A stretch of 64,000 nt of DNA from a virus, in IMG/VR virus record IMGVR_UViG_3300044712_002679, positions 180,406-244,405 of that record. The stretch is one strand, 5' to 3'. The position numbers and the translations under genes are program-made. The stretch's first letter is position 1; every line of letters begins with the position of its first letter. This document shows, in pieces, positions 37,851 to 63,800 of the stretch. The notes under the pieces are model-generated. The model made no database searches and was not told the DNA's origin. It worked only from the letters and a program-made list of their open reading frames with translations.

Positions 37851-40800
37851 ATGTTATGGACAATATTACTGATTAAAAAAAATAATAATGGTTGGTATAT
37901 TAACTACATTGAAAACAAGTTAATTAATCAAATAAACAAATTGAAATTAGAAAAGTTTGTTGAAGTTCTTGTATTTGAACCCAATTTACAAATTTTTGCT
38001 AATTATATAAGTGTTGTAGATAAAGTTGAAATATCTGATAATTTTGTGGAAATAATTTACAATAAATTAAAAAATTGTAAAAAAGATTGCATTAGATTAA
38101 CCGCCATAAGTTATATGGATAATGTTCCAATAGAAATAGTCTTACCAATATCAAAATTAAATCCAATAAAAATAGATAATATATTCGAATTACAAGACAT
38201 TAATTATTATATTAATAGTGAAAATCTTTCAAGTATAGTTAAAACGATAGACACAATAAACATTCCAGTTATTTATTATGAAGATTTGAATAAAATACCA
38301 TTCAGTATCATTATATCAGCATATAAATCACAAAAATATATTGAAGAATGTTTAGATTCAATTGAAAATCAAACATACTTTAAAGATAATGATAATTATG
38401 AAATATTAGTTGGTGTTGATGGTTGCCAGGACACCTTAGATAAATTACAAGAAATCAAGGATAAATACAGAAATCTTCATATTTATATGATGACTGAAAA
38501 TAAAGGCACATATATCTGTTGTAATACATTGATTGATTTAGTGAAAAATGAAAATGTTATTAGGTTTGATTCTGATGATGTTATGACACCTAATTTTATT
38601 AGAGAAGTTGTTAGAAATATTAATGATAACGATATTATGATATTGGGTTCATTGGATTTGACAAATGGTATTGTTGGCACAAAATTTTTATTAACGGAAG
38701 GAATCATTTATTTTAGAAAAAGTGTAATGGATAATATTGCTGGGGGATATCAACCTTGGATATGTTCGGCTGACACAGAATTAATCAAAAGATTAATGAA
38801 TAAAGTAAAAATTATGCAATTAAAAAAAGCATTATTTCACAGAAGATTGCATAGTGAAAGTTTAACACAGAAAGATGGTACACGATATAGATCAGAACTC
38901 AGGGAAGGTTATAAAAAATTGATTAAACCATATTATAAAGATAATGAAATTAAAATTGAACGGGTTGTTAATATAATATTAGAAGAAGAAAAATTAGAAG
39001 AAAAATTAGAAGAAAAATTAGAAGAAAAATTAGAAGAAAAATTAGATATAATTTTAGAAAATAACATTCCAAAGATTCCAAAAAAGATGTTTTTTTATTG
39101 GAGTGGTGGCAAATTATCATGGATGAGATATATGACAATATATTCATTTAGAAAATTTAATCCTGATTGGGAAATAACATTATGTTTATCTAATAACAAA
39201 AGTACTTATAATAATTGGAAACATAATAAACAAGATTTTATTGAATATAATGGTGATGATTATTTTAAAAAATTAAAAAAATTAAATATCAATATTAAAG
39301 ATGTCAAATTTTCAGATGAATTATCAAATAATTCATGTTTTAAAAAATTATCACCTATTCACGAAAGTGATTTATATAGATATTATGAACTGTATAAATC
39401 TGGTGGATTTTATTGTGATAGTGATGTTATATTTTTTAGGTCTATTGATAAATTTTACAATGAAATTATTTCTGGTCAATATGATACTGTTGTTCACGAA
39501 TATTATAATTCTGAATCAGACAAATATCAAACAATAGGGTTTTTGGGTTCTTCTATAAATAACCAATATTATAAAGATTTATTTAATTATGCGGTCCATC
39601 ATATTTTAAAAAACAACATATCCAATGATGATTATCAATCATTGGGTGTCAATTTAATTTATAATTATTTTAATAAATTACCAAAATTATTACCAAATAT
39701 TAAAGAAAAATATAAAGATTTAAAATTTATGAATATACCAAACAATTTAATATACAAATATGATTGGAAGTGTATAGAAAATTGTTTTGAAATTGGTAAA
39801 ACAATAAACGATTTTGATATATATTCTATTGGTTATCATTGGTATGGTGGACATAAAATATCACAAAAATATAATAATATTTTAAATGAAAAAAATTATA
39901 AAAAATATAATACGACAATAAGTAATATTGCTAAATTCATTTATGATAAAAAAGAAAAAATATTACCAACAATTTCTATTATTATGACTTATTATAATAG
40001 AAAAACATTATTATACAATACGTTAAAAAGTATAAATACATCATCTGTAAAAAATATAGAAGTTATTGTTGTTGATGATGGTAGTTCGGAAGATCAAAGA
40101 ATAGAAGAATATAAAAATGAATTTTCATTTTTAAAAATAATTAGATTAAATCCTGAAAATAAATGGTATCTTAATCCATGTATACCATTTAATATTGGAA
40201 TAAGATATGCAAGTTCGGATAAAATAATATTACAGAATTCGGAATGTGTATATGTTGATGATATATTAAAATATGTTAATGATAATTTAGATGATTTTAA
40301 ATATATATCATTTTCAACATATTCTATTGATGAAGAATCCAATAATTTAATATCTAAAAATTTAAAAAATGACACATTAAAAGAATTTCTTAAAAAATTT
40401 CCACAACAAACAATAATGGGCAATAGACCAATTGGGTGGTATAATCATTCACAATATAGATCGACATATTATCATTTTTGTGCTGCAATAACTAAGAAAA
40501 ATTTAGATTTAATTGGTGGTTTTGATGAAAGATATGCTAATGGCATTGGATTTGATGATGATGATTTTATAGAAAAAATAAAAAATTTGAATTTAAATAT
40601 GTTGATAGTGGATAATTATTCTGTTATCCATCAGTGGCATGATAGTTATTATTATAATATTCCAAATTTTATGAATTATCATAATAAAAATAAAAATATA
40701 TTTAATTCAATATATAAAAATAAGAAAATATCAGTAGCAATATGCTATTATAATCGTAAGCAACATTTAATTAATACATTAATGAGTATGACTAAAAGTT

Positions 40801-43109
40801 TATATAAAAATTTTGAAGTTATCGTTGTTGATGATTGTAGTGATGATGAACATAGAATCGAATATTTAGAAGAAAAATTTAATTTTTTGAAAGTTGTTCG
40901 TATAAATAAACAAGAAAAAAAACATATTAATCCTTGTTATCCACTTAATTTAGCAATAAGTAAAACTGTTGGTGATATAATCATATTACAAAATCCAGAA
41001 TGTTATCATTATGATGATATATTTTCACAAGTTATAAATAAAATCGAAAAAAATAAATATTTAGCTTTCTCAACAGTAAATATTGATATTGTTGATAACC
41101 TATCTAAAATAAATTATAATAATTATGAATCTGAAATAAAAAATGTAATAAATATTGATATAAATGAACCTAATGATTCTAAAAAGTTTTGGTACTGTCA
41201 TGAAAAATTTAGACCAGAAGCATATAATTTTTGTACAGCAATAACAAAAAATGATTTAATTCAATTAAATGGATTTGATGAAAGATATGCAGATGGTATA
41301 GAAAGAGATGATGTTGAATTTTTAACAAGAATAAAAAGGATGTTAATGACTATATCATTTGAACCATCTATTGTAATACACCAAAGTCATACACAATTTT
41401 ATTATAATGATAAAAAAACAAAAGAATTAAAACAAAAAAATCATGAATTATTTGCAAAAACGACAGCTATTGAAAAAAACATAAAAGTAAATACAAATAA
41501 AAATATTATAAATATGACAAGCAAAAAAATTGGAATTTTAGTAGTAAATTTAAATAATTTAGATTTTACAAAAAAATGTATAAATGATTTAAAAAAACAA
41601 ACAAATCAAAATTTTATAATTTATTTAGTTGATCAAAATTCTGATGAAATAGGTACAATTGAATATCTAAATGAATGTAAAAATGATTATAACATAAAGA
41701 TAATTCAAAATAATGATAATATACCACTCAATTATATTTGGAATAATTTTAAAAATATTTGTAATTGTGAATATTTATGTTTTTTAAATAATGATGTTGA
41801 ATTATCTAATATGTATGTCGATGATACAATTAAAGTATTAGATAAAGAATCATCAGTAGGTATTGTTTTACATATTACTAACAATCCAGAATATATTAAA
41901 TCTAGTATACATTTAAAATATGATATTTTTGATGAACCATTACGTCAAGGTTGGGATTTCACTATTAGACGACATATAATGCCAAATATACCATTAGGTT
42001 TAAAACTTTTTTATGGTGATGATTATATATTTTCAAAAGTTAATTCATTAGGTTATAAATATGCTGTTGTATATAGTTCACCAATAATTCACTATTTGAG
42101 TCAAACTTGTAAAAAATTAAAAAATCTCGATAATTATGCGGATGAAGATGAGATAGTATTTCAAAAAATAATGAATGATGAAAAACTAAAACCGATTTTA
42201 TATTCATCTTGTGGAAAAATTGAAAATAGACAAATTATAGGATCAGGATTATGTAAACTAAAACCAAATAAAAATATGATGGTAATTGATGAAATTAAAA
42301 AAATATTAGTAGTAATTGTAAATTATAATTCAGATCAACTTAATCACTTAAATGCAGTAATTGATGAATTTAATAAATTTGATAAAAATAAATATAAAAT
42401 TGATATTTTTGTACATAGTAATATATCAATTAATAGAAATGATGTAACTACAATAATACATAATATGCCAGAAAAAGGTTGGAATTGGCTTCCTTGGGAA
42501 TGTCGAAAAACAATTTATAAAAATAAAGATTATTATGATTTATATTTATATACAGAAAATGACCATCTATATAAAGAATCACATATAGATTCATTTTTTA
42601 AAATAACAAATATTTTACCAGAAAATTTAATTGCTGGATTTATTCAATATGAAGATTTTCCAGATAAGAATAAAGATAAATTTTATCCAGCTTATCATGC
42701 AAATTATGATTGGGATTTTGATTCTATACAAATAATTGATAATTATATTGTAGCAAAATTTAAAAATCAACATCATGCTGGTTTTTTATTAACTAATAAT
42801 CAATTAAATAAAGTTATAAATGTAATGAAAGATGATTTCTTAATTGATATGGATCGTGGAAAATATATTGATGAATTACCTGGATATGATTCACCAAAAG
42901 TTAGATGTTGTACTGATGTTTATACACATTGTGGTATGAATAAAGTTATACCAATATCACATTTTAATGATTTCTTAATCCACCATTTACCTAATAAATA
43001 TATAAATTTAAATTGTATTAATGGTCATTGGATTTCAATAGAAAATAAAGAAAATCCAAATTATGATAAAATGTCAGATGCAATTAAAAAAATGTTAAAA
43101 ATTAAATGA
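37851..43109 (+). CDS. Giant multi-domain glycosyltransferase (1752 aa): GT2, GT32-like (Och1/DXD), then GT2 x3, plus a C-terminal domain
   Basis: FSIIISAYKSQKYIEECLDSIENQ...VGVDGC. IPKKMFFYWSGGKLSW...YCDSDVIFF. ISIIMTYYNRKT...VIVVDDGS. ISVAICYYNRKQ...VIVVDDCSDD. IGILVVNLNNLDF...IIYLVDQNSDE. Also an (EEKL)x5 linker. Confidence 0.75.
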   Translation: MLWTILLIKKNNNGWYINYIENKLINQINKLKLEKFVEVLVFEPNLQIFANYISVVDKVEISDNFVEIIYNKLKNCKKDCIRLTAISYMDNVPIEIVLPISKLNPIKIDNIFELQDINYYINSENLSSIVKTIDTINIPVIYYEDLNKIPFSIIISAYKSQKYIEECLDSIENQTYFKDNDNYEILVGVDGCQDTLDKLQEIKDKYRNLHIYMMTENKGTYICCNTLIDLVKNENVIRFDSDDVMTPNFIREVVRNINDNDIMILGSLDLTNGIVGTKFLLTEGIIYFRKSVMDNIAGGYQPWICSADTELIKRLMNKVKIMQLKKALFHRRLHSESLTQKDGTRYRSELREGYKKLIKPYYKDNEIKIERVVNIILEEEKLEEKLEEKLEEKLEEKLDIILENNIPKIPKKMFFYWSGGKLSWMRYMTIYSFRKFNPDWEITLCLSNNKSTYNNWKHNKQDFIEYNGDDYFKKLKKLNINIKDVKFSDELSNNSCFKKLSPIHESDLYRYYELYKSGGFYCDSDVIFFRSIDKFYNEIISGQYDTVVHEYYNSESDKYQTIGFLGSSINNQYYKDLFNYAVHHILKNNISNDDYQSLGVNLIYNYFNKLPKLLPNIKEKYKDLKFMNIPNNLIYKYDWKCIENCFEIGKTINDFDIYSIGYHWYGGHKISQKYNNILNEKNYKKYNTTISNIAKFIYDKKEKILPTISIIMTYYNRKTLLYNTLKSINTSSVKNIEVIVVDDGSSEDQRIEEYKNEFSFLKIIRLNPENKWYLNPCIPFNIGIRYASSDKIILQNSECVYVDDILKYVNDNLDDFKYISFSTYSIDEESNNLISKNLKNDTLKEFLKKFPQQTIMGNRPIGWYNHSQYRSTYYHFCAAITKKNLDLIGGFDERYANGIGFDDDDFIEKIKNLNLNMLIVDNYSVIHQWHDSYYYNIPNFMNYHNKNKNIFNSIYKNKKISVAICYYNRKQHLINTLMSMTKSLYKNFEVIVVDDCSDDEHRIEYLEEKFNFLKVVRINKQEKKHINPCYPLNLAISKTVGDIIILQNPECYHYDDIFSQVINKIEKNKYLAFSTVNIDIVDNLSKINYNNYESEIKNVINIDINEPNDSKKFWYCHEKFRPEAYNFCTAITKNDLIQLNGFDERYADGIERDDVEFLTRIKRMLMTISFEPSIVIHQSHTQFYYNDKKTKELKQKNHELFAKTTAIEKNIKVNTNKNIINMTSKKIGILVVNLNNLDFTKKCINDLKKQTNQNFIIYLVDQNSDEIGTIEYLNECKNDYNIKIIQNNDNIPLNYIWNNFKNICNCEYLCFLNNDVELSNMYVDDTIKVLDKESSVGIVLHITNNPEYIKSSIHLKYDIFDEPLRQGWDFTIRRHIMPNIPLGLKLFYGDDYIFSKVNSLGYKYAVVYSSPIIHYLSQTCKKLKNLDNYADEDEIVFQKIMNDEKLKPILYSSCGKIENRQIIGSGLCKLKPNKNMMVIDEIKKILVVIVNYNSDQLNHLNAVIDEFNKFDKNKYKIDIFVHSNISINRNDVTTIIHNMPEKGWNWLPWECRKTIYKNKDYYDLYLYTENDHLYKESHIDSFFKITNILPENLIAGFIQYEDFPDKNKDKFYPAYHANYDWDFDSIQIIDNYIVAKFKNQHHAGFLLTNNQLNKVINVMKDDFLIDMDRGKYIDELPGYDSPKVRCCTDVYTHCGMNKVIPISHFNDFLIHHLPNKYINLNCINGHWISIENKENPNYDKMSDAIKKMLKIK
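38984..39049. repeat. 12-nt tandem repeat x5 (gaagaaaaatta), encoding (EEKL)5
   Basis: Direct reading. Confidence 0.8.
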
Positions 43110-44167
43110 AAATATTAACAATAGTTGGAACTAGACCCGAATTAATTAGATTGAGTGTTATAATTGAAAAATTAGATCAATTAGTTGAACACATTTTGGT
43201 ATATACAAATCAAAATTATGATTATAATTTGAGTGGTAGATTTTTTGATGATTTAAAAATAAGAAAGCCTAATTATTATTTTTCAAAAGAAGCTAAAACA
43301 TTTCCAGATTTTTTAAGTAATGCTATATTAGAATTTGAAAAAATTTTAAATGATGAAAAACCAAATAAAATACTTATTCTTGGTGATACAAATTCAGGTT
43401 TATTATCAATAATTGCTGAACGATATAAAATTCCAATATATCATATGGAAGCAGGAAATCGGTGTTATGACAGTAGGTTACCAGAAGAAGCAAATAGAAA
43501 AATTATTGATAGTGTTTCTACATACAATTTACCATATACAGAAAATAGTAAACAAAATTTATTATCAGAGGGTTATCATAAAAATTATGTATTTAAAACT
43601 GGAAATCCAATTTATGAAGTATTAAATAAATTTATTATTGAAATACATAATAGTAAAATACTATCAGAATTAAATCTTGAAAAATATGTTTTAGTCACTG
43701 TACATAGAACCGAAAATGTTGATAATGAGGATTCGTTACGAAGCATAATTTATGCTATAAATACTATTTCCGAACAGTTCACAGTTGTACTTTCTCTACA
43801 TCCACGAACAAAAAATAAAATTGAAGAATTTGGCATTAATTTTAATAATAATGTAATTGTTTCTAATCCTTTTGGATTTTTTGATTTTATAAAATTAGAA
43901 AAAAATGCCAAATGTGTCATAAGTGATTCTGGAACAGTTCAGGAAGAGGTATGTATATTTGGTGTACCATCTTTAACAATTAGAGAAAGTACTGAAAGAC
44001 AAGAAACAATTGAATGTGGATCAAATATTCTATGTGGTACAAAAACACAAAATATAATAAATGCTTTTAATATTGCAATTAAGAGAAATAATAAATGGAA
44101 TGTTCCAGAAGAATATTTGAATAAAAATGTTTCAGATACAATAATTAATATATTATTAGGAAAATAA
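43106..44167 (+). CDS. UDP-N-acetylglucosamine (or UDP-L-RhaNAc) 2-epimerase, WecB/WbvD family
   Basis: MKILTIVGTRPELIRLSVII... matches the WecB N-terminus MKVLTVFGTRPEAIK. 353 aa. Confidence 0.75.
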   Translation: MKILTIVGTRPELIRLSVIIEKLDQLVEHILVYTNQNYDYNLSGRFFDDLKIRKPNYYFSKEAKTFPDFLSNAILEFEKILNDEKPNKILILGDTNSGLLSIIAERYKIPIYHMEAGNRCYDSRLPEEANRKIIDSVSTYNLPYTENSKQNLLSEGYHKNYVFKTGNPIYEVLNKFIIEIHNSKILSELNLEKYVLVTVHRTENVDNEDSLRSIIYAINTISEQFTVVLSLHPRTKNKIEEFGINFNNNVIVSNPFGFFDFIKLEKNAKCVISDSGTVQEEVCIFGVPSLTIRESTERQETIECGSNILCGTKTQNIINAFNIAIKRNNKWNVPEEYLNKNVSDTIINILLGK

Positions 44168-44176
44168 AAATAAAAT

Positions 44177-44821
44177 ATGAAAGAATTAAAAGAACAAATG
44201 ACAAATTTTTGGGAAGAACAGCATAAAAATGAATATAAGCCATGTTTAAGTGGAAGTGAATATGAACAAACAATTAATTGGTTAAAAATCAATGATATTA
44301 TAAAGCCAAATTTAAATATATTGGAAGTTGGTGTTGGATTGGGTTATGTTACAAAAAAACTTTTTGAAAATAAATTAAATGTGAGTTCAGTTGATATATC
44401 AGAAATTGGATTAGAACGAGTAAAACCATATTGTGAAAAAACATATAATATAAATAATATTTCTGAATTACCATCAAATTATTTTGATATTATAATATGC
44501 AATCTTGTTGTTCAGCATATTTCAACAGAAATTCTTATACAAGAATTAAAAGAATTTATGAGATCATTAAAAAAAGATGGAGTTTTTTCAATACAGTTTG
44601 TTTCATCTGATAATTTTGATGATAATGGAATTAACGCATCATTTGATGATTCACAAGCAGGAAGATTATGTCGAACACCAGAAGTCATGAAAACCATATT
44701 TAAAAAATTTGGTGGAAAATGCGAAATTGTAAATGAATCACCACTCACATCTGCTTGGTTAACACGAAGTTATGTTTTCCATGTAACAAAAATACAAAAT
44801 ACAATATATGCAAAATACTAA
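44177..44821 (+). CDS. Class I SAM-dependent methyltransferase
   Basis: Motif I ILEVGVGLGYVTKKL. Confidence 0.6.
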   Translation: MKELKEQMTNFWEEQHKNEYKPCLSGSEYEQTINWLKINDIIKPNLNILEVGVGLGYVTKKLFENKLNVSSVDISEIGLERVKPYCEKTYNINNISELPSNYFDIIICNLVVQHISTEILIQELKEFMRSLKKDGVFSIQFVSSDNFDDNGINASFDDSQAGRLCRTPEVMKTIFKKFGGKCEIVNESPLTSAWLTRSYVFHVTKIQNTIYAKY

Positions 44822-45362
44822 TTTTAATGATATTAGCCAATTAATATCAAAATATGTAAATTTGGATATAGATAAACTTTTAGTTTTAGGTTGTGGTGAA
44901 TTAAGATATGAATTAAATTTAAATGCAAATCACATATTGGGTATAGATTGGTCTGATGAACAATTAGATAAAGCAAAAAATAAATCTAATGTAATTGTAA
45001 TAAAATATGATATTACTGAAATTAAAAACATCCTTCGTGATAAAAGTTTTGATAGTGTTGTATTAATTGATGTTTTAGAACATCTCGAAAAAAAAGATGC
45101 ATTAAATATATTAATAGATTTAGAAAAAATTGTTAAAGATCAAATAATATTATTTGTACCAATTCAAGAAAAAATAGAAAATTTAGAAAAATTTATAAAA
45201 TATCAAAAAGATCGTAAATTAAATAATCTTTCTATGGGTTATCATTTATCAAATTGGACACCTCAAGAATTAGAATTATTGGGTTTTATTGGTGAGTATT
45301 CAGAAAAATATCACATAGAAAAAAATATGGGTGCAATATTCTGTGTAAAAACAATATTATAA
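44808..45362 (+). CDS. SAM-dependent methyltransferase-like protein
   Basis: LVLGCGELRYELN and VVLIDVLEHL motifs. Confidence 0.5.
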   Translation: MQNTNFNDISQLISKYVNLDIDKLLVLGCGELRYELNLNANHILGIDWSDEQLDKAKNKSNVIVIKYDITEIKNILRDKSFDSVVLIDVLEHLEKKDALNILIDLEKIVKDQIILFVPIQEKIENLEKFIKYQKDRKLNNLSMGYHLSNWTPQELELLGFIGEYSEKYHIEKNMGAIFCVKTIL

Positions 45363-45364
45363 GT

Positions 45365-45928
45365 ATGGATTATCTAAAAATATATGAAGGAATTTTTAAT
45401 GAATATGAAAATTATGATAACCATATTGGTTATATTGATAGATATAATTATATAATAAAAGAAATATCTAAATATTCATATAAAAAAATAATAGATATTT
45501 CATCTGGTCGTGGTGTTTTAATTAAATTATTGCAAAATAAATTTTCAGATATTAAAATATGCACTACTGATATTAAAAAATTCAATGATATAGATGTTGA
45601 TTTTATAAAATTAGATTTAACAAATAAAATCGAATATAATAATATAATAGATAAATATGATTTATTGTTGTGTTTAGATGTATTAGAGCACATTGAAGAA
45701 GAATATATAGATGATGTATTAAATTTCTTATCATCAATATCAGAAAATTTTTGTTTTTCAATTGCAAATCATTCTGATATAAAAAATAATTATGAATTAC
45801 ATTTAATTCAGAAAAACAAAAAATGGTGGAATACAAAATTAAAAAAATATTATAAAATAATAAAAACATTTAATAAATATGATAACAAATTATATTGTTA
45901 TATTTTAACAAAAAAAAATAAATTATGA
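45365..45928 (+). CDS. SAM-dependent methyltransferase-like protein
   Basis: IIDISSGRGVLIKLL and LLLCLDVLEHI motifs. Confidence 0.5.
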   Translation: MDYLKIYEGIFNEYENYDNHIGYIDRYNYIIKEISKYSYKKIIDISSGRGVLIKLLQNKFSDIKICTTDIKKFNDIDVDFIKLDLTNKIEYNNIIDKYDLLLCLDVLEHIEEEYIDDVLNFLSSISENFCFSIANHSDIKNNYELHLIQKNKKWWNTKLKKYYKIIKTFNKYDNKLYCYILTKKNKL

Positions 45929-46644
45929 AAATACTTATATTAGGACATAATGGATTATTGGGAAATACTGTTTTAAAATATTTTAAATCAAAAAAATATG
46001 AAATAATAATAACAGATTTAAGGTGGCCTGATAATGATTTTAAATCATTTATATCAGAACAAAAAGTTGATTATATTATCAATTGTATTGGTGTTATACC
46101 ACAAAAGAAGCCAAATGATGAACTTTATGATTTAGTTAATTATCAACTACCTGTTTGGTTAGATAGTTTAAATATTAAAGTTATACACCCAGATACTGAT
46201 GAACCTGATGATAATCCATATGGTTTAGCAAAAAGAAAAGCACGGGAAGATATAAATAAAAATACTAAAATACTAAAAGCATCTATTATTGGATTTGAAA
46301 AAAATACACAATTTTCATTTTTAGAATGGTTTTTACATTCTGAAAAATCTGTTAGTGGATATACAAATCAATATTGGAATGGTATTACAACATTAGAATG
46401 GGCAGAATGTGCAGAAGAATTAATGAATAATTGGGATAAATTTAATAATGTTACAATATTATCTAATCCAGATTGTTTATCTAAGTATGAAATATTATTG
46501 ATGTTCAAAAAAGTATTTAATAAAAATATTGAAATTATACCAACTGAAGCAACATTAAGTAAAAATAATTGTATGAAAGCTGATTATGTATTAGAAAAAT
46601 TGGAAGCACAATTATATGAAATGAAAAAATTTTATGAAAGATAA
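45925..46644 (+). CDS. RmlD/WbvR-like NAD(P)-dependent sugar 4-reductase (short)
   Basis: MKILILGHNGLLGNTVLKYF Rossmann N-terminus, typical of dTDP-4-dehydrorhamnose-reductase-like enzymes. Confidence 0.55.
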   Translation: MKILILGHNGLLGNTVLKYFKSKKYEIIITDLRWPDNDFKSFISEQKVDYIINCIGVIPQKKPNDELYDLVNYQLPVWLDSLNIKVIHPDTDEPDDNPYGLAKRKAREDINKNTKILKASIIGFEKNTQFSFLEWFLHSEKSVSGYTNQYWNGITTLEWAECAEELMNNWDKFNNVTILSNPDCLSKYEILLMFKKVFNKNIEIIPTEATLSKNNCMKADYVLEKLEAQLYEMKKFYER

Positions 46645-47575
46645 ACGAATATTTATAACTGGTGGTGCCGGGTATTTAGGTACTAATATAATTAAACGAT
46701 ATTATAATGATAATGAAATATCAGTTTATTCAAGAGATGAAGTTAAACATTATTATCTTAAAAAACAATACCCAAAAGTCAATTGTATAATTGGTGATGT
46801 TCGTAATTTTGATTTATTAAGCAGATCATCAAAAAATCATAATATTGGAATATTTGCAGCATCCCTTAAACAAATTGGTGCTGTTGATCAAAATCCAGAG
46901 GAAAGCGTTCGTGTAATAATTGATGGTGCAATAAATTCAAGAAGATGTGCAGAAGAAAACAAATTTGAATCTGCGTGTTTTATATCATCAGACAAATCTA
47001 GAGCAGCAACCACTTTATATGGTGCAATGAAATTTGTTGCTGGTGAATTGTTTATAGTTAATGCGGATAGAAGTTCAACTATGCTATCATCTGCAATATA
47101 TGGTAATGTTACTAATTCTACTGGTAGTATAATTCCTTTAATTTGGGATAGTATTAATAAAAAATATGAATTAATATTATATTCAGATCAAATGACAAGA
47201 TTTATGTTAGATGTTGAAGATGCAATTGATGTTATTGAAAATGCACTACAAGTTAATGGATATAATGTTATACCAAATGTTAAAAGTATTAAAATAAAAG
47301 ACTTATTTGATGTATATCAAGAAAAATTTGGATTAAAATATAAATTGGGTGAACCTAGAATATCAGAAAAAATTCATGAAATTATGATCGCCAAAGAAGA
47401 ATTACCAAGAACATACTATTCAAAAGATAAAAATATGTATTTTATGCATTATCAAAATATTCAAAAAGATAGTATGATTGGAAATTTTATAAATAATGAG
47501 TATAATTCGGGTGATTATACCTATTCAAAAGAAGAATTAATACGATTATTAGAAAAAAATAATTATTATAAATGA
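46634..47575 (+). CDS. UDP-GlcNAc 4,6-dehydratase (5-epimerase), PseB/CapD/WbvB family
   Basis: RIFITGGAGYLG...ISVYSRDEVKHYYL...IIGDVRNFDLL and YGAMKFVAGELF parallel H. pylori PseB (ILITGGTGSFG...IIVYSRDELKQ...FIGDVRD, YGATK). Confidence 0.75.
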   Translation: MKDKRIFITGGAGYLGTNIIKRYYNDNEISVYSRDEVKHYYLKKQYPKVNCIIGDVRNFDLLSRSSKNHNIGIFAASLKQIGAVDQNPEESVRVIIDGAINSRRCAEENKFESACFISSDKSRAATTLYGAMKFVAGELFIVNADRSSTMLSSAIYGNVTNSTGSIIPLIWDSINKKYELILYSDQMTRFMLDVEDAIDVIENALQVNGYNVIPNVKSIKIKDLFDVYQEKFGLKYKLGEPRISEKIHEIMIAKEELPRTYYSKDKNMYFMHYQNIQKDSMIGNFINNEYNSGDYTYSKEELIRLLEKNNYYK

Positions 47576-48150
47576 AATTATTAATAAAAATATACATTCG
47601 AGAAATGAATCCTTATGATTTATTACAAATTTTAGGTGCATTAGAATCTGTTGTCTGTGAAAAAGATAATACCAAAATTGTTATTATGACAAATGATTCA
47701 ACATTTGATTTTGACCATTATGAATATTATTATTCATCCGATACAAATATCCAAAAAATGATAAATTATAAACTAGATGAATTGGAATGGGATATCATTC
47801 TACCAATATTTAGGCCATTTATCGCAACCCGTAATTTTGATTCAATTATAAAAAAATTATATGAAGAATATTTTAAAAATTTAGATGGTGTATTATGGGT
47901 AAACGATAATGTACAACATGAAGTTGCAACATTTCCAATCATTGGTAGAAAATATTATGAAAAATTTGGATATGTTTTCAATTCAATTTATAATAAAAAG
48001 AATTTCGAAGAAGAATTTACGGAAATTTTAAAACTTAATAAAAAATATCATTATTATGATAAAACTACAATGTTCAAAATATTACCATTAAAGTTGGATG
48101 ATGATAATATTTTTGATTTTAGAAAAAAAATAAATTTTTGTTATTTATAA
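47572..48150 (+). CDS. Hypothetical protein
   Basis: 192-aa ORF. Confidence 0.4.
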   Translation: MKLLIKIYIREMNPYDLLQILGALESVVCEKDNTKIVIMTNDSTFDFDHYEYYYSSDTNIQKMINYKLDELEWDIILPIFRPFIATRNFDSIIKKLYEEYFKNLDGVLWVNDNVQHEVATFPIIGRKYYEKFGYVFNSIYNKKNFEEEFTEILKLNKKYHYYDKTTMFKILPLKLDDDNIFDFRKKINFCYL

Positions 48151-56237: not shown

Positions 56238-56324
56238 ATATTATTTATAACAAATGTATTTTTTTTATTGGATAATACAAAAAAATTACTTTAAAATTTT
56301 AATATATACAGAAAAAATAAAATT

Positions 56325-56534: not shown

Positions 56535-56565
56535 AAAAAGCCACTTTTTCAAGTGGCTTTTTTGT
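56534..56565. terminator. Rho-independent terminator hairpin GCCACTTTTTCAAGTGGC, copy 1
   Basis: aaaaaaagccactttttcaagtggcttttttg. Confidence 0.6.
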
Positions 56566-58474
56566 TTATCATTTCAAATTTATATTGTCCACAATCATAT
56601 ATTCTTGGTATATTTAATTTTGACATAATATTTTTTTCGGTATCATTGCATTTTAATTTCTTTTTAGTGAAATGTTGTTTATTTATTCTTTTATTATTTA
56701 CAATATATTTGTAATTTATTTTACTTTCATAAAGTAAATTGAATCCTAGCATATAATATAATTTACCATCACTCCAGGCTTTGTCTGAATATGAAATAAT
56801 TCGATTGGATTCATAGTTTTTTATAAAATAAGACAACAATTTGGAAGCAGCACCAATAACATTAGTATCTAATTTATTACAAAATCTACTTAAATTCCAT
56901 TCATTTTGTTGTAATTTTTTCCTACCTTCCATTTTATCAAATGTCATTATTGAAACTAATTCGTTATTATAAAATAATCCTATTTTTTTAACTGAATGTA
57001 TAAATCCTTGGATATGATTATTATTAAGAAATTGTCTAATAATATTTATATCATCAATTTCTTTAATTTGACATTTTCTCGCAAATATTTTATTTTCTGT
57101 TAAATTAAGCCAATTTTTTATTTGACTTTTCAATATATCTGACCTAAAATCCCAATCATCTTCCCAAATATAAATAATTCGAATTCCTTTTTCTTTAAAA
57201 TAATTTAGTTTTTTTAAATGCTTATCTTTTTCAATATATTTATCACTATGCCAATATAACCCATTAAATTCAAACCCAATTTTGATGTCAGGTAAAAATA
57301 CATCTATTTCATAATGATCTCTATAATTTTCAATAATTGTTCCATCATATATATTTTGAATAAAATTTTTCAATTCTTTTTCTTTTATTGACACATTAGC
57401 ATCAATTGGATAACATACAGTACAAATTTTGCAATTTCTATATTTTCTTTGAAAATAATTATTTGTAGCAATTTCATAAATATGATCCTTTCCACAGTCA
57501 CATTTAAATTGTGACATTAAACCACCAACATATTGAATATAATTAGAATCTTTTGCTATTATGTAATTATATTTTCTAAAATCTTCTAGAAACATAATAT
57601 TATCAACATCATATCTTTCTTTAAATGTGTTTTTTATTTTATTTTTTATTTCATTATTTTGTGTTGGTCTTTCGAATCCATATTTTATTAAATTAGTATC
57701 TTTAATTTTTGTTTGTATTCCAAATAATGATGCAATGTTAGTTGTACCATATTTTTCTAATAATGTAATATTGACTTTATCTGAAAGTTCTTTTGAACTA
57801 TAAGTAAATCCACTATATTTCATATCAAAAGTTTGTTTCTTTTTTTCTTTCACATCAATATCTTGGGATATATTTTTTAGATTGTATATTTTTAGTGTTG
57901 TATTTTCACGAATATTATTTATTTTTTGTATTTCTTCTGTTGTTTTATTATTCCAAGTGTTTTTAATTTTTAATGATATTTCTTCTTTATTTAAATCATA
58001 TTTAATTTTTTTCGAATCTTTAACATTTTGTATTTGCGAAACATGTTCTACACCATATTTTATTAAATTGGTTTTTTTTATTTTTTCTTTAACATCAGAT
58101 AATTCAAATGTTGATTCTACACCATATTTTAAAAAATTGTTTTCTTTTAACTTTAATGCACCACATTTATATGAACAAGAGTATTTATTAGTTTTTTTAA
58201 TGTTTTCATTATATGTTTTCATTGATACAATTTTTTCGTTACCACAATAATCACATATTACAGGTATTTCTATATGTGAACCCTTTGGTATGTCTGAAAT
58301 TTTCACTATTATACTATCATTATCAGTATTATATCCTAATTTTTCATAGTATTTTTTATTAGAATGATTTATATTTACAATTACATTTTCACAATTTATC
58401 ATAGTTTTATTTTTATTTTTATTGGCAAACAATGTAATATGTTTGATTAAGTATATATAAATACAAAATATCAA
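56549..58474 (-). CDS. Large nuclease-like protein: KYGx repeat modules, a Vsr/DUF559-like PD-(D/E)xK domain, and a C-terminal domain
   Basis: IGFEFNGLYWHSDKYIEKDKHLKKLNYFKEKGIRIIYIWEDDW is homologous to the C-terminus of ORF 205-1230. There are about 5 repeats of LIKYGVE...K.KIKKT. Confidence 0.6.
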   Translation of the reverse strand: MIFCIYIYLIKHITLFANKNKNKTMINCENVIVNINHSNKKYYEKLGYNTDNDSIIVKISDIPKGSHIEIPVICDYCGNEKIVSMKTYNENIKKTNKYSCSYKCGALKLKENNFLKYGVESTFELSDVKEKIKKTNLIKYGVEHVSQIQNVKDSKKIKYDLNKEEISLKIKNTWNNKTTEEIQKINNIRENTTLKIYNLKNISQDIDVKEKKKQTFDMKYSGFTYSSKELSDKVNITLLEKYGTTNIASLFGIQTKIKDTNLIKYGFERPTQNNEIKNKIKNTFKERYDVDNIMFLEDFRKYNYIIAKDSNYIQYVGGLMSQFKCDCGKDHIYEIATNNYFQRKYRNCKICTVCYPIDANVSIKEKELKNFIQNIYDGTIIENYRDHYEIDVFLPDIKIGFEFNGLYWHSDKYIEKDKHLKKLNYFKEKGIRIIYIWEDDWDFRSDILKSQIKNWLNLTENKIFARKCQIKEIDDINIIRQFLNNNHIQGFIHSVKKIGLFYNNELVSIMTFDKMEGRKKLQQNEWNLSRFCNKLDTNVIGAASKLLSYFIKNYESNRIISYSDKAWSDGKLYYMLGFNLLYESKINYKYIVNNKRINKQHFTKKKLKCNDTEKNIMSKLNIPRIYDCGQYKFEMINKKAT

Positions 58475-58521: not shown

Positions 58522-58534
58522 AAACAAGATAATT

Positions 58535-59467: not shown

Positions 59468-59578
59468 TGCCTTTAAATTATTTTTATGAAGCCTTTTAAG
59501 CCTTAAAATATTGCAAAACCTATAAAGCCTTGTAACATTTTATGATATTTATATTATGATATATAAAAAAAGTTTAAA

Positions 59579-60004: not shown

Positions 60005-60293
60005 CCAATTTTTTATTGATCATATTCTGCAAATTATATAAATTAAATTTCCAGAAGTTGTCATAAAATTGTCCAAATTCATCAACATCAAAAATATCTA
60101 CATCTTCAATAGTATTAAGGGTTTGATTTAAAAAATCAATACAAAATTCATCATATGTATATTTGAAATCAATTTTGACTTTTTTTAAATCTTTGTTCAA
60201 TAACGATATCGTATATTTATAATCTTTGTAGTCATTAACAAACGATGTTGTTAATGCTTCTTTCATTACATTTTTTCTTTCTTCTAAATCCAT
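59925..60293 (-). CDS. Hypothetical protein
   Basis: 122 aa, basic C-tail. Confidence 0.4.
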   Translation of the reverse strand: MDLEERKNVMKEALTTSFVNDYKDYKYTISLLNKDLKKVKIDFKYTYDEFCIDFLNQTLNTIEDVDIFDVDEFGQFYDNFWKFNLYNLQNMINKKLDEVGVDRDLFYKKSSSFKPKKKKKDV

Positions 60294-60310
60294 TATATTT
60301 CTTTCTATTT

Positions 60311-61159
60311 TTATAAAATGTTATTTTCTAAATAATTATAAATATATAAAAACGGTTCATAATATTTTTTTGCGATTTCAAAATTATCTTTTATAGCATC
60401 TAACATAGTATTATATTTTTCTATTGTTAAATTATTTAGTATGTCATTTAAATCATCAATATTATCAAATGTTATTATACCATTAATATTAAAAAAATTC
60501 CCAATTGATGGACAACCCCAATATATCGGAACTGTTCCAGTAACAAAACAATCCACAATTTTTTCTGTCCAATAATAATCTTCTTTTGTGTTTTCAGTTA
60601 CAATAGAAAAACAATAATTTTTTAAACCAGTCAATTTGTCAGCTATTGGATTATATCCATTTGTTGATATATCATCGCATCTAGCATTATCACCAAAATT
60701 TCCACCATAAATATCTAATAAATAAGAATATTTATTTATAATAGAATGCCTTAATTTATGACCCACAAGAAAATTTCTAGTAGATGCAATAATTGATATT
60801 AATTTATTTTTTTTATGAATATCTCTATTATAAGTACCAATACGGCTTCCTGAATTTGGACAATATATATAATTTTCACCTTTATCCAATAATTTTTTTA
60901 AATGTGTAAAAACATATAAAAAATTATTATTATTTTTTTCAATCCAATTATAATCGTTAATATTTATCATTGGTGATTCTAAAATCCAAGCTATTGATTG
61001 GTTATTTATATTTGTATTTTGCAAATTATTATCAATATAAATAACAATATCATTTGGATTAATATCAGATTCAAGAATTAATTCAGAAAAATTTTGTAAA
61101 ATGTGCCAATCACTTTTTAATATCAAATTATTTTTACCAATATTAATTCTAAAATACAT
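60311..61159 (-). CDS. Alpha-1,3-fucosyltransferase-like glycosyltransferase (GT10)
   Basis: YCFSIVTENTKEDYYWTEKIVDCFVTGTVPIYWG matches the FucT motif F.FENS...Y.TEK....G.VP. Confidence 0.6.
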   Translation of the reverse strand: MYFRINIGKNNLILKSDWHILQNFSELILESDINPNDIVIYIDNNLQNTNINNQSIAWILESPMININDYNWIEKNNNNFLYVFTHLKKLLDKGENYIYCPNSGSRIGTYNRDIHKKNKLISIIASTRNFLVGHKLRHSIINKYSYLLDIYGGNFGDNARCDDISTNGYNPIADKLTGLKNYCFSIVTENTKEDYYWTEKIVDCFVTGTVPIYWGCPSIGNFFNINGIITFDNIDDLNDILNNLTIEKYNTMLDAIKDNFEIAKKYYEPFLYIYNYLENNIL

Positions 61160-61226
61160 ATTTTTAATTTTATTTTTAATTTGACCTATTGTTAATATAT
61201 ATATATAATTAAAACACGATCATTTT

Positions 61227-62096
61227 ATGAAAATAATACAATCTTTTGCACAATTTGATGATGGTAATTTTTATGTTAATGGTAAATTGAATTATACTGA
61301 AATATATTTAAATTTTTATGTATTTTTATTGTCATTTTTAACATTAAAAAAATATTATAATAATGTTACAATGTATTGTAATAAAAAAGCATATGAAACA
61401 TTTGTAAAATATATTCCATACGACAGAATAATATTGAAAGAAAATAAATATTCACAAAAATATTGGAGTGCATATAAATTAGATGTAATAGAAAATATAA
61501 ATGAACCATTTATACATGTTGATAATGATGTATTTATATTTAATGATTTGTTTAGACCATTTATTGATAATGTAAATAAATATGATTTAATGATTCAATT
61601 TGTAATGGATTGTGATGTTCCAGTAATAGAAAATGTTTGTCCAAAAGAAAAATTTGATTATAAATCTTTTACATGTGGTGTATTAGGAATTAATAATGTA
61701 AAAATTAAAAACAATTATATAAATGACACGAAAAAAATATTTAATCTAATTGAAAATAATATTATTGTAGGTGATTCAGCAAAAATAGGATTTATATTAG
61801 AAGAATTTACATTATATTTAAATACGTGTAAAAATGATTTAAAATACTATGAAGTTATACCATATAATGAAATTAAAAAATATGGAATATATGAATGTTG
61901 TGATAAATATAAATATACACATATGTGGTTTCAAAGTAAATTTACAGAAAATAATATAAAATTAATTAAAAATAAAATAAAAAAGGATTTTCCAGGATAT
62001 TATAATATAGTCGAAAAATATGATTTATTAATATCAGAATCAAATATTGATATTAAATATTATCCAGAATCAAATGTTATTAAAAAAAATGTATAA
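61227..62096 (+). CDS. Hypothetical protein (paralog of the partial ORF at 63825)
   Basis: 289 aa. Shares MYCNKKAYETFVKYIPYD with the 63825 ORF. Confidence 0.45.
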   Translation: MKIIQSFAQFDDGNFYVNGKLNYTEIYLNFYVFLLSFLTLKKYYNNVTMYCNKKAYETFVKYIPYDRIILKENKYSQKYWSAYKLDVIENINEPFIHVDNDVFIFNDLFRPFIDNVNKYDLMIQFVMDCDVPVIENVCPKEKFDYKSFTCGVLGINNVKIKNNYINDTKKIFNLIENNIIVGDSAKIGFILEEFTLYLNTCKNDLKYYEVIPYNEIKKYGIYECCDKYKYTHMWFQSKFTENNIKLIKNKIKKDFPGYYNIVEKYDLLISESNIDIKYYPESNVIKKNV

Positions 62097-62964
62097 ATTA
62101 TCCTTTTGTATAACTTGTATGAATAGATTAAGTTTTTTAGAAAAAACTTTATTATATAATTTAAAATTAATTTATCAATTAAAAGAAAAATATAATATCG
62201 AATTAATTTTAATTAATTATGATAGTAAAGATGAAATGGATATTTTTTTAAATAAAAATGTGTTTAATATGTTTATTGATAAAAAATATTTGATATACAA
62301 AAGAATTTATGATAAAGAGTTTTTTCATCGTTCAAACGCAAAGAACATTGCACATTTAACTGCTACTGGTGATATATTATGTAATTTAGATGTGGATTGT
62401 TATTTATCCGAAGAACTAATAAAAGAAACATATGATACATTTATTGAATATGGTTTAAATATTATTATTCATGGTGTAATTAATTATAATTTTGGATATA
62501 TTTGTTTAAGTAAATATAATTTTAATTTAATTGAAGGTTATGATGAAAATTTATATTATTATGGTTTAGAAGATTATGATATATTAATTAGATTATGTAT
62601 AAAGACAAATTGTAAAATAAAACATTTAAAACAGAATTATTTAAATTTATTGATAGATCATAACGACTCATTAAGAATGACAAATCATTATAATAAATAT
62701 TTTACATCATTTATAAATGCAATTATTGTCAATTATAATTTAAATAATAATATAACAAATCCAAATAATGGTATTTTTGGTATCGAAAATAACAATTTTA
62801 AATTTAAAGAATTATTCGATTATCATTTTTTTACAAAATATATTTTAAATGATGATTATATTTTAAATATATGTAAAGAAAATTATAATAACAAAAAAAT
62901 ATGGTTAGATGAAAAAATATTATCAAATTTTGATATATTTTTAAAAAAATATACAATAAAATGA
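62089..62964 (+). CDS. GT2-like glycosyltransferase
   Basis: Start trimmed to MYKLSFCITCMNRLSF. DxD-like LDVDC. Confidence 0.45.
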   Translation: MYKLSFCITCMNRLSFLEKTLLYNLKLIYQLKEKYNIELILINYDSKDEMDIFLNKNVFNMFIDKKYLIYKRIYDKEFFHRSNAKNIAHLTATGDILCNLDVDCYLSEELIKETYDTFIEYGLNIIIHGVINYNFGYICLSKYNFNLIEGYDENLYYYGLEDYDILIRLCIKTNCKIKHLKQNYLNLLIDHNDSLRMTNHYNKYFTSFINAIIVNYNLNNNITNPNNGIFGIENNNFKFKELFDYHFFTKYILNDDYILNICKENYNNKKIWLDEKILSNFDIFLKKYTIK

Positions 62965-63800
62965 AAAAATTGATATATTACAGTGTTAATTATAAATATA
63001 ATAATTTATTGAAATTATCATTATTTACATTAAGATTACATTATAATGGTGATATTTTAATTATTACTGATTATGATAATTCATTAATATTAAAGAAAGA
63101 TTTAAATGTGTTAAATTTAACTTTTTTGATTGTTGATAATACCAATGAAAAGTTTACATTAGCTTTAAATAGATATAAAATTTTTGAATATGATAAAATT
63201 TTTGAATATGATTCGATACTATATTTAGATTGCGATACATTGATTATTAATGATTTAGATGATATTTTTAAATATACTATTGAACAAAATGGTATTGGTG
63301 TTGTTTGTGAAAATGATGAAAATGGTTATCCCAAATTAATGAATTCTGATAATTTTTTTGGTGTACATTTATTTAATGATATTGAATTAAAATTATATAA
63401 TAATATGATTGGTTTAAATAGTGGAGTATTTTGTTTTTCTCCAACAAAAACATCAAACAAAATTTTCAAAAAAATATATGATTATGCAATAAAAGATTTT
63501 AATAATTTGAATATGCGGGATATATGTAATGCTTGGGGGGATCAACCATATTTCGATTATATATTAATTATTAATAATTGTTATTATTCAATAAATAATT
63601 TTTGTCATATAATTGATTTAAGATTTGATATATTCGAAGCAATAATAACGAATAAAAAAGATTATAATAATTCTAATTTTAAAAAACAAATAAAAGATTA
63701 TAGTATTATACATTTAATTGGTCCAGCTTGGGGAAGTTTTGATAAAAAAATTGAAAAAATATTAAAAGCATTTCCAAAAAAAATAATTAAAGATTTATGA
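62961..63800 (+). CDS. Family 8 glycosyltransferase (LgtC/glycogenin-like)
   Basis: LDCDTLIINDLDDIF (DxD) and NSGVFCF motifs. Confidence 0.6.
   Translation: MKKLIYYSVNYKYNNLLKLSLFTLRLHYNGDILIITDYDNSLILKKDLNVLNLTFLIVDNTNEKFTLALNRYKIFEYDKIFEYDSILYLDCDTLIINDLDDIFKYTIEQNGIGVVCENDENGYPKLMNSDNFFGVHLFNDIELKLYNNMIGLNSGVFCFSPTKTSNKIFKKIYDYAIKDFNNLNMRDICNAWGDQPYFDYILIINNCYYSINNFCHIIDLRFDIFEAIITNKKDYNNSNFKKQIKDYSIIHLIGPAWGSFDKKIEKILKAFPKKIIKDL

Follow-up and report, generated by a model that had tools for sequence, protein, structure and literature searches.

A glycosyltransferase island with a fixed core and an exchangeable cassette in a huge bacteriophage genome, with the virion as its possible target

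The 64,000-nucleotide stretch of viral DNA analyzed here (the window; positions 180,406 to 244,405 of IMG/VR record IMGVR_UViG_3300044712_002679) carries, at 37851-63800, an island of glycan-related genes in DNA of about 22% GC. Comparison with related phages indicates that the island consists of a fixed core of four glycosyltransferases (GTs), namely the head of a giant multi-module enzyme, a GT-A-fold protein, a GT2 and a GT-B-fold protein, and of a slot in which other glycan genes are swapped. In this genome, which its gene content marks as that of a huge tailed bacteriophage of at least 501 kb, related through its gp32-type single-stranded DNA-binding protein (SSB) to the Mahaphage clade, the slot holds three methyltransferases (MTs) and a predicted dehydratase, reductase and epimerase acting on sugar nucleotides. 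The likeliest role of the island, to which we would give about an even chance, is glycosylation of virion proteins, with the structural proteins of the phage as acceptor.

The island falls into two parts, its open reading frames (ORFs) lying where the first-pass annotation, a description of the same DNA made without database searches, had placed them. The division is real, as non-glycan genes fill 52.8-60.3 kb, among them a T4_Y16D-like gene, a DUF7487 gene and the gene for the gp32 SSB. Part 2 extends about 4.4 kb past the window, to the window equivalent of about 68.2 kb, and this continuation was taken from L058, a second (Logan) assembly of the same sequence. The window holds about 16.4 kb of glycan-related coding sequence, and the continuation brings the total to about 20.8 kb. 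There are at least eight GT modules in part 1 and about 13 in the whole island, drawn from the GT2, GT32-type, GT-A, GT-B, GT10-like, GT8-like and GT11 families. Nearly all the domain assignments of the first-pass annotation are upheld at family level by profile searches; it had overlooked two GTs (of 192 and 276 amino acids, aa), the DUF6734 genes, the continuation and the organization of a cassette within a frame.

That frame recurs in six related contigs (L060, L062 and L066-L069) in the order ORF of about 87 aa, giant GT, variable slot, GT-A, GT2, GT-B and gp32. The giant-GT heads are 55-63% identical to that of the window, the GT-A proteins 47-80%, the GT2 proteins 73-91% and the GT-B proteins 59-84%, and gp32 is 79-82% identical where the contig reaches it. 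A seventh relative, L070, keeps the GT2, GT-B and gp32 genes, and its contig stops upstream of the slot. The giant GTs of the six relatives range from 639 to 1185 aa, and with the window they give seven different cassettes in one frame. In the window (501 kb contig, giant GT of 1752 aa), the slot contains an epimerase, three MTs, a reductase and a dehydratase. It contains nothing in L060 (531 kb contig, giant GT of 1147 aa); a 234-aa ORF, a Methyltransf_24 gene and a Hexapep acetyltransferase in L062 (106 kb, 1069 aa); a 258-aa ORF and an MT in L066 (86 kb, 884 aa); an MT-like gene, a GT2 and an epimerase in L067 (50 kb, 1185 aa); two small ORFs, a Hexapep gene, a GT2, a DegT aminotransferase and a PglD-like acetyltransferase in L068 (19 kb, 639 aa); and an MT, a rhamnosyltransferase-like gene and a further MT in L069 (9 kb, at least 862 aa, the gene being cut by the contig end). 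The epimerase is absent from L060, L062, L066, L068 and L069. The GC content of the cassette genes at third codon positions (GC3) is 0.08-0.11, in line with the surrounding island genes, and so speaks against the cassette having been taken recently from a cell.

The largest gene of the island (37851-43109, + strand) encodes a GT of 1752 aa in a single ORF. It had been described as a fusion of five modules, and Pfam searches on the whole protein bear this out with Glycos_transf_2 (4.3e-54, in four stretches), Gly_transf_sug (1.1e-09; a GT32-type DXD region) and Glyco_transf_7C (1.3e-08). A scan of seven segments taken singly places the GT2 modules at about residues 152-284, 732-922, 986-1175 and 1247-1350 and the GT32-type module at 455-538. 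The protein can be divided accordingly into an N-domain (1-145), GT2a (146-400), the GT32-type module (401-705), GT2b (706-960), GT2c (961-1225), GT2d (1226-1480) and a C-terminus (1481-1752), and neither of the two terminal stretches matches a family in the segment-wise Pfam scan. GT2b and GT2c, the third and fourth modules, are tandem duplicates (41% identity over 260 aa, E=1e-54), and GT2a is joined to the GT32-type module by an (EEKL)5 linker encoded by a perfect tandem repeat of 12 nt in 5.2 copies (38984-39046, +). Chlorovirus PBCV-1 A064R, a much smaller, three-domain protein of a eukaryotic virus, also chains GT modules for a virion glycan in one polypeptide.

Full-length equivalents of the giant GT were not found among 5.8 billion proteins, an exact look-up of the 1752-aa sequence was blank, and tblastn against phage records returned single GT2 domains only. 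The head (residues 1-380) is found in 30 proteins of 1000-2150 aa, at 49-80% identity, and the modules downstream of it are shuffled or replaced. In two relatives (P0133 and P0143), MT domains are also fused to GT modules; the free-standing MTs of the island have no detectable kinship with these fused domains.

The three other core GTs lie downstream of the slot. The GT2 (315 aa; 50501-51448, +; Glycos_transf_2 at 3.3e-20) is the most conserved core gene of the island, at 72-91% identity in relatives. The other two have no match in sequence-based searches, with the 192-aa ORF (47572-48150, +) blank in sequence-profile searches and the family of the 276-aa ORF (51943-52773, +) blank both in Pfam and in a comparison of its sequence profile with the PDB. 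AlphaFold2 (AF2) models of both, built from family alignments, are confident, with a predicted local distance difference test (pLDDT) of 94.9 and 90.9, respectively. Foldseek matches the 192-aa model to WrtF (2.7e-7), the Leptospira GT 6p61, TarP/TarS and RmlT (TM-scores 0.6-0.72), and the 276-aa model to BshA (3mbo, 2.6e-6, TM-score 0.71-0.74), MshA, PimA and PglA (0.6-0.74 overall). Homologues of the 192-aa protein also occur inside larger proteins, fused to GT25, GT4, GT2 and GT9 domains. On their predicted folds, the two proteins are additional GTs, of GT-A fold and of GT-B fold (GT4-like), and they are 47-80% and 57-84% identical, respectively, in relatives.

The cassette of the window is built around three sugar-nucleotide enzymes. 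The first is a predicted UDP-GlcNAc 4,6-dehydratase of the inverting, PseB/Mg534-like type (313 aa; 46634-47575, +; Polysacc_synt_2 at 5.8e-38). Its best solved relatives are Mg534 (4tqg, 4.5e-32) and Helicobacter pylori FlaA1/PseB (2gn4, 4.3e-31), followed by FnlA and CapE, and the retaining-type PglF is a far weaker match. It retains the active-site residues SSDKS...YGAMK, which align with STDKA...YGATK and YGMSK. The second is an RmlD-like short-chain dehydrogenase/reductase (SDR) of 239 aa (45925-46644, +), predicted to be a UDP-4-keto-6-deoxy-L-HexNAc 4-reductase (HexNAc, N-acetylhexosamine) and, by analogy to Mg535, possibly a 3-epimerase as well. A single-sequence Pfam search gives only a weak RmlD_sub_bind match (0.0043), while the family profile matches RmlD in the PDB (1vl0, 1.6e-7, positions 1-217), the catalytic triad of SDRs (T91/Y99/K103) is invariant, and homologues at 42-46% identity carry PF04321 RmlD_sub_bind. 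One of these is named 'UDP-6-deoxy-4-keto-L-IdoNAc 3-epimerase / UDP-4-keto-L-RhaNAc 4-reductase', the activity of Mg535. The third is a non-hydrolysing UDP-HexNAc 2-epimerase of CapG/WbvD/Mg536 type (353 aa; 43106-44167, +; Epimerase_2 at 9.2e-89), for which the best PDB match is CapG (7ya2, 3.1e-93, 315.6 bits), with Escherichia coli WecB at 119 bits. CapG belongs to a class that we take to act on 2-acetamido-2,6-dideoxy-L-hexoses; WbvD and WbjD are documented C-2 epimerases of these sugars (PMC9614988).

Between the epimerase and the reductase lie the MT genes. Three S-adenosylmethionine-dependent MTs had been proposed. Two of them, MT1 (44177-44821, +; Methyltransf_11 at 3.3e-11) and MT2 (44808-45362, +; Methyltransf_11 at 4.1e-09), pass the Pfam cutoffs as class I enzymes. 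MT3 (45365-45928, +) falls below them (Methyltransf_12, 22.6 bits against a cutoff of 30); it has weak similarity to MT1 (E=5.8e-4) and is a probable class I MT.

The proposed likeness of the three sugar-nucleotide enzymes to Mg534-536 of Megavirus chilensis and to the WbvB/R/D enzymes is reasonable, given that the dehydratase is nearest Mg534 and PseB, a reductase homologue is named for the Mg535 activity and the epimerase is nearest CapG. In Megavirus the homologous trio is in use, and the fibrils carry L-RhaNAc, 4-O-methyl-L-RhaNAc and L-QuiNAc (PMC9614988; PMC10117803). The mg534-mg539 cluster resembles the island in that Mg534 is the best solved relative of the dehydratase, and its 4-O-methylated fibril sugar parallels the MTs of the cassette. 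It differs in belonging to an amoeba-infecting giant virus rather than a tailed megaphage, with about 30% identity over the HMMER alignment; in its gene order, the operon of the island including three MT genes; in a reductase of 270 aa rather than 239 aa, the latter with an 18-residue deletion; and in a GT of three modules as against at least five.

In bacteria, Vibrio cholerae O37 WbvB/WbvR/WbvD, Pseudomonas aeruginosa WbjB/C/D and Staphylococcus aureus CapE/F/G likewise provide a dehydratase, a reductase and a 2-epimerase working from UDP-GlcNAc, and it is CapG that the epimerase of the island most closely resembles. CapE and FnlA have Met at the Tyr position of the Tyr...Lys motif, whereas the dehydratase of the island keeps the Tyr, as do PseB and Mg534. 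CapF is a two-domain protein, and the reductase here is single-domain and RmlD-like. The bacterial loci are, moreover, accompanied by Wzx/Wzy-type export genes, which are absent from the island.

Several observations weigh against reading the three enzymes as one linear pathway with a defined product. The dehydratase scores far below the NCBIfam equivalog cutoffs for both PseB and FnlA and is therefore an equivalog of neither, and a loop of 18 residues lying between the catalytic Thr and Tyr is missing from the phage forms of the reductase. The epimerase also matches a genuine UDP-GlcNAc 2-epimerase, from an archaeon (4neq), at 247 bits. A scan of IMG/VR with the dehydratase returned 56 loci at 60-81% identity; in 39 of these a reductase homologue adjoins the dehydratase and the epimerase is absent, and neither the epimerase nor the MTs nor the giant GT is present in any of the 56. 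Conversely, an epimerase of 78% identity occupies the corresponding position in L067, with neither dehydratase nor reductase. Finally, sequence cannot reveal the stereochemistry of the products. The earlier treatment of the trio as a single unit does not hold in view of these distributions; it is the dehydratase and reductase that form the conserved unit. A three-step route is plausible but not obligate, because this pair and the epimerase also occur separately.

It may be, then, that the enzymes serve two independent branches, in which the pair leads to a UDP-6-deoxy-L-HexNAc, and the epimerase, being separable from it, simply makes UDP-ManNAc from UDP-GlcNAc, which a nearby protein of the UDP-glucose dehydrogenase (UGDH) family might oxidise in a WecB/WecC-like manner. 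This is a serious alternative, if a somewhat unlikely one. Besides the separate occurrence of pair and epimerase in the 39 loci and in L067, the epimerase exceeds the NCBIfam wecB equivalog cutoff (TIGR00236; 259.9 bits against 210). Its preference for CapG, at 315 bits, over canonical WecB enzymes, at 119-156 bits, points the other way, as does the placement of epimerase and pair in one tightly overlapping operon in the window.

The candidate for the oxidation step is itself incomplete. This variable gene (49659-50504, +) encodes a 281-aa protein of the UDP-glucose/GDP-mannose dehydrogenase family, with matches to UDPG_MGDP_dh_N (6.6e-14) and to the central domain (7.4e-6), and its GGACFPKD motif, with the catalytic Cys, aligns with GDP-mannose dehydrogenase. 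It ends at residue 281, however, so that the third domain of the family architecture, the C-terminal nucleotide-sugar-binding domain, is absent, and its match to the NCBIfam UDP-ManNAc dehydrogenase (1e-4) is poorer than those to UDP-glucose dehydrogenases. The gene had been listed as a nucleotide-sugar dehydrogenase, which is right for the family and its N-terminal and central domains and not for a complete enzyme. Short homologues of 242-281 aa occur in eight IMG/VR loci (L020, L023, L035, L037, L042, L046, L056 and L057), where they keep the catalytic Cys motif, lack the C-terminal domain and always lie directly beside a GT gene. A separately encoded C-terminal domain was not found; in related loci the adjacent ORF, of 125 aa, encodes a hydrophobic product with no relation to such a domain.

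The gene families, folds, synteny and cassette variability set out above are results of the analysis, and the substrates, the stereochemistry, the target of methylation and the acceptor of the glycan are our inference. In the model that we favour, the inverting dehydratase would convert UDP-GlcNAc to UDP-4-keto-6-deoxy-L-HexNAc, which the RmlD-like reductase would reduce to a UDP-2-acetamido-2,6-dideoxy-L-hexose such as UDP-L-RhaNAc, with a 3-epimerisation if it acts as Mg535 does. The CapG/WbvD-type epimerase may turn part of this product into its C-2 epimer, UDP-L-QuiNAc. The three MTs would O-methylate sugars of the chain, and the soluble GT modules would assemble the oligosaccharide in the cytoplasm. 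The acceptors would most likely be phage structural proteins, giving a glycosylated virion whose glycan type varies between related phages.

The first-pass annotation had left the choice between virion and host surface open; two independent signals from the genomic context of related genes in other phages lean towards the virion as target. In 16 IMG/VR loci the dehydratase lies 329-1058 bp upstream of tail genes, namely those for the sheath (phrog_23, 1.4e-74), the tube and the baseplate hub, and there are genes for GT4, GT9, GT2, a sugar C-methyltransferase and PIG-L in the same loci. Orthologues of the core GT2 (50-55% identity, full length) likewise occur within virion gene modules of unrelated phages of higher GC. 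A single-sequence scan of IMG/VR with this protein found one locus, and an alignment-based scan found seven full-length orthologues, six of them (L071-L076) outside the megaphage frame. In L073 the orthologue is downstream of the genes for the portal (1.6e-153) and major head protein (2.2e-123), and in L072 it stands between the terminase/head block and the gene for a 1308-aa tail/adsorption protein.

The proteins of the island are also of a kind that could act in the cytoplasm. No transmembrane (TM) segment was found in any of them, including the giant GT. A search for polytopic membrane proteins of the flippase, polymerase or phosphoglycosyltransferase kind, covering ORFs of at least 90 aa with more than two hydrophobic segments and setting aside antisense shadow ORFs, found none in the window or in the related loci L058, L060, L062 and L064, and the island alone can therefore not export a polysaccharide. 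Glycosylation of virions by phage GTs is established in mycobacteriophages, where soluble enzymes of the phages (Che8 gp110, Corndog gp38, and those of Myrna) modify their own capsid and tail-tube proteins (PMC12363180; PMC12619734). Cytoplasmic glycosylation by soluble phage GTs is the mechanism proposed here for the island. The mycobacteriophages differ from it in having unrelated hosts and few GT genes that draw on host sugar nucleotides, as against about 13 GT modules with sugar-nucleotide and methylation genes of their own, and in that the evidence there is experimental.

Other observations count against the virion as target. In its own lineage the island abuts gp32 and small genes of unrecognised function, with no recognisable structural gene; the neighbouring 85-aa, 145-aa, 395-aa and 402-aa products have no match in PHROG or Pfam, which is why no structural gene can be identified there. 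The link to the virion rests on neighbourhoods in other, unrelated phages, and the genome is at least 501 kb long, of which the analysis covers 64 kb and a further 5 kb or so of continuation. The O-antigen GTs of bacteria are themselves soluble or peripheral and have no TM helices, so that the enzymes of the island could still act on lipid-linked intermediates of the host.

Remodelling of the host surface is the main rival explanation. The enzymes would feed unusual sugars and GT steps into an undecaprenyl-linked O-antigen, capsule or protein O-glycosylation pathway of the host, stopping adsorption by other phages or keeping progeny off cell debris. The polymorphism of the cassettes would fit diversifying selection on a surface antigen, and the island stands beside a replication gene, gp32, and not beside structural genes. 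This is also the published interpretation of lipopolysaccharide- or capsule-type clusters in jumbo cyanophages such as P-SSM2, in which up to 15 genes, polymorphic among relatives, include epimerase and dehydratase paralogues and several GT families (PMC7824862). The island has the same features by which polysaccharide clusters of jumbo phages are recognised, combining several GT families with three SDRs in a cluster that is polymorphic among relatives, and it is thus less exceptional for a phage than had first been supposed, the more so in a genome of at least 501 kb. It differs from the cyanophage clusters in phage lineage and gene content, having a four-GT core, a defined swap slot, giant modular GTs and a 6-deoxy-L-HexNAc cassette, and in a context that leans towards the virion. 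Against it, the window and the related loci are devoid of an initiating phosphoglycosyltransferase, of a flippase, a polymerase and an ABC exporter, and of a ligase, and other phages have homologues of the pair and of the core GT2 inside their virion modules. A soluble giant GT with at least five modules is more like the GTs of giant-virus fibrils than like Wzy-type loci (PMC10117803). On balance, action on the host surface is unlikely, although it deserves to be kept in view beside the virion model.

A more specific and more doubtful form of virion glycosylation is that the island is a 'serotype' locus of megaphage virions, in which the four core GTs prime one phage protein dedicated to this role, and cassettes and GT modules are swapped through a recombination slot that TnpB elements sometimes occupy. 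Candidates for the primed protein would be a fibre protein, a capsid protein or the Ser/Thr-rich 85-aa product encoded just upstream of the giant GT (37443-37700, +). This product is conserved beside the island: five relatives encode it, at 61-75% identity and in each case immediately before the giant GT, and its C-terminus, GTTSIY(S/T)Y, is invariant among them. It is a candidate glycan acceptor or accessory protein. Its richness in Gly, Ser, Thr and Asp is unusual for a genome of 22% GC, and its gene is followed by a terminator-like hairpin and T-run at about 37763-37791 (z=-4.1). If there is such a locus, related megaphages would display different surface glycans much as bacteria vary their O-antigens, and phages would for the first time be seen to have an equivalent of the fibril glycans that differ between clades of giant viruses.

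It is very improbable that the GTs instead decorate modified bases, such as hydroxymethylated pyrimidines, with sugars as a T4-like defence against restriction. T4-like replication genes, gp32 and the T4_Y16D-family gene, do stand beside the island, and phage GTs that add diverse glycans to DNA are known (cited in PMC12619734). However, some 13 GT modules, a 6-deoxy-HexNAc pathway and three MTs far exceed the mono- to trisaccharide DNA modifications known to us, and the homologues are placed in virion modules. In the window, which is partly annotated, no hydroxymethylase-like gene was recognised.

The assignment of the genome to a huge phage draws on the SSB, which matches phrog_224 (4.8e-29) and PF08804. 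Its closest counterparts in the INPHARED collection of phage records, at 42-48% identity, belong to 'uncultured phage' genomes of 634-735 kb; identity to Lak phage is 27%. The 634-735 kb genomes are those of the Mahaphage clade, with predicted Bacteroidetes hosts (PMC7162821). An identical reductase is encoded on a 501,337-bp Joint Genome Institute (JGI) contig, and the placement near Mahaphage draws on these SSB identities and this contig, the window containing no terminase or capsid gene. An exact copy of one island gene is also present in IMG metagenome 3300042876, from a rice-root iron-plaque sample. A glycan island likewise lies within 15 kb of gp32 in the 634-kb Mahaphage LR745206, where a GT2 and a GT11 accompany a dehydratase (33%), a reductase (29%) and an SDR (54%). 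In LR756504, which has the closest SSB in INPHARED (48%), no homologue of any island gene occurs within about ±23 kb of gp32, and when 25 kb of the locus was compared by megablast with 50,697 phage records, there were zero matches.

That the DNA is not from a phage at all, and comes from a Mimiviridae-like giant eukaryotic virus or a misassembled or misbinned bacterial O-antigen locus, is scarcely credible: the very low GC (22%), the many tRNAs, a trio like Mg534-536 with a GT of more than 1700 aa as in Megavirinae (Ma468 has 1666 aa) and one homologue labelled 'Candidatus Dojkabacteria' are set against a T4-type gp32 and PHROG matches that indicate a phage, nearest genomes that are curated huge phages, co-directional and tightly overlapping genes, a frame that recurs beside gp32 in relatives and a cassette GC3 equal to that of the rest of the island. 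The Mimiviridae motif AAAATTGA was counted 45 times against 34 ± 6 expected, mostly within genes, which is modestly over chance (one of 100 shuffles reaches 45). Giant-virus origin was rejected because this excess is modest, the genes overlap tightly and phages are the closest relatives.

Several elements of the island have precedents: jumbo phages have large glycan clusters that are polymorphic, Megavirinae have the three-enzyme pathway and multi-domain GTs, and glycosylation of phage virions is documented. What is new here is the three-enzyme pathway in a tailed megaphage, a GT with at least five modules, the fixed four-GT core with its swap slot, and the abundance of the dehydratase-reductase pair beside tail genes in uncultured phages. 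No description of a 6-deoxy-L-HexNAc pathway in bacteriophages was found in the literature searched, and the main text of the paper on huge phages mentions neither glycosyltransferases nor polysaccharides (PMC7162821). Since the pair is widespread beside tail genes in uncultured marine phages, the pathway is environmentally common. In the literature found, mycobacteriophages are the only phages for which experiments establish that virions are glycosylated by enzymes of the phage itself, with few GTs, and it is characteristic of giant eukaryotic viruses to make rare bacterial-type sugars for the virion coat autonomously. If the virion model is right, very different viruses would have a convergent or shared strategy, to which the swapping of cassettes within a fixed frame adds weight. 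The island is also a concrete system in which to ask what selects for glycan diversity on phage particles or infected cells, whether host receptors, grazing or immune recognition, or competing phages.

The second part of the island opens on the complementary strand with a GT10-like (fucosyltransferase-family) protein of 282 aa (60311-61159, -), which is borderline for its family (Glyco_transf_10, 23.8 bits against a cutoff of 23.9, E=4e-5); the syntenic gene in L060 has FucT_N and Glyco_transf_10 matches on record. It is followed by a 289-aa DUF6734 protein (61227-62096, +; PF20508 at 4.2e-19), with a 61% orthologue in L060, and by a GT2 (62047-62964, +; Glyco_tranf_2_2 at 1.6e-11, Glycos_transf_2 at 2.1e-08). 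The true start of this GT2 is likely the ATG at 62089, giving 291 aa, and not the listed TTG at 62047, because the Logan assembly calls a 291-aa gene from there; this start overlaps the DUF6734 stop by 8 nt. Next is a 279-aa GT-A, GT8-like protein (62961-63800, +) that stays under the cutoffs (Nucleotid_trans, 21.0 against 22 bits; Glyco_transf_8, 18.7 against 24.3 bits) and has a 39% orthologue in L060, itself with a faint GT8 match. Of the single-module GTs first proposed, the two GT2 enzymes (50501-51448 and 62047-62964) are thus sound, and the GT10 and GT8 are marginal, the latter lying below its profile cutoffs.

Only the start of the following gene (63797-64000, +) lies in the window. 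In L058 (8641-11052) it encodes an 803-aa fusion of a DUF6734 part, paralogous to the 289-aa protein, with a GT2 and a radical-SAM/SPASM module (Radical_SAM at 7.7e-6, SPASM at 4.4e-5). We know of no GT in which these three are combined. A GT11 gene and then a 347-aa SDR follow it in L058. No sugar kinase or nucleotidyltransferase gene was seen in the island.

Downstream of the giant GT, the genes of part 1 are on the same strand and mostly overlap by 4-14 nt. The TnpB-like gene is on the opposite strand (48210-49508, -); it encodes a 432-aa transposon-associated protein (phrog_12300 transposase, 3.5e-5) inserted in the island and absent from L060. In L062 a sequence-unrelated TnpB of OrfB_IS605/Cas12f-like type (15641-16843, -) occupies the same junction between the GT-A and GT2 genes. 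The presence of unrelated TnpB genes at one junction in the two genomes suggests that this junction, beside the variable slot, is an insertion hot spot.

Promoter motifs add little. A scan for sigma-70 promoters gave 192 sites against 197 ± 13 by chance and is therefore uninformative on operon structure. The motif TATAAATA, which we take to be the T4 late-promoter consensus, precedes the giant GT by 17 nt and is more frequent in the window than expected (61 against 40 ± 6). Most copies lie within genes, so the motif gives no indication of expression timing.

Several other features of the window and its relatives may be recorded. The DUF7487 gene between the two parts (641 aa; 56549-58474, -) is present, truncated, duplicated or absent among syntenic relatives, with copies in L068 (10033-11880 and 17143-18018), in L060 (15831-16739) and in the IMG/VR loci L002, L003 and L055, and from this distribution it behaves like a mobile gene. 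In L066 a SAM synthetase with an intein (Hint/Intein_splicing; 18093-19772, -) lies about 8 kb from the glycan island and may supply its MTs. Marine myovirus-like contigs (L013, 5325-9059; cluster c6, 17 IMG/VR loci) encode fusions of GT4, GT9 and PIG-L deacetylase of about 970-1240 aa, and NDP-hexose C-methyltransferase-like genes, beside the dehydratase-reductase pair and tail genes.

Elsewhere in the window there are 25 tRNA genes, at 6205-12757 and 24944-25172, several of them 84-97 nt long, and an ORF resembling an HNH-type endonuclease (7706-8494) lies between two copies of tRNA-Tyr. The ORF at 1214-1924 encodes the C-terminal portion of a dehydrogenase resembling IMPDH/GMP reductase (phrog_9582) and begins just after an '...IIVHNC' junction; an endonuclease-like ORF precedes it, and the region 205-1924 looks like an interruption by an intein or homing endonuclease. 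A perfect tandem repeat of 33 bp in 4.7 copies (13324-13477) encodes PKMVKSEKIEK repeats within a 284-aa ORF (12855-13709, -).

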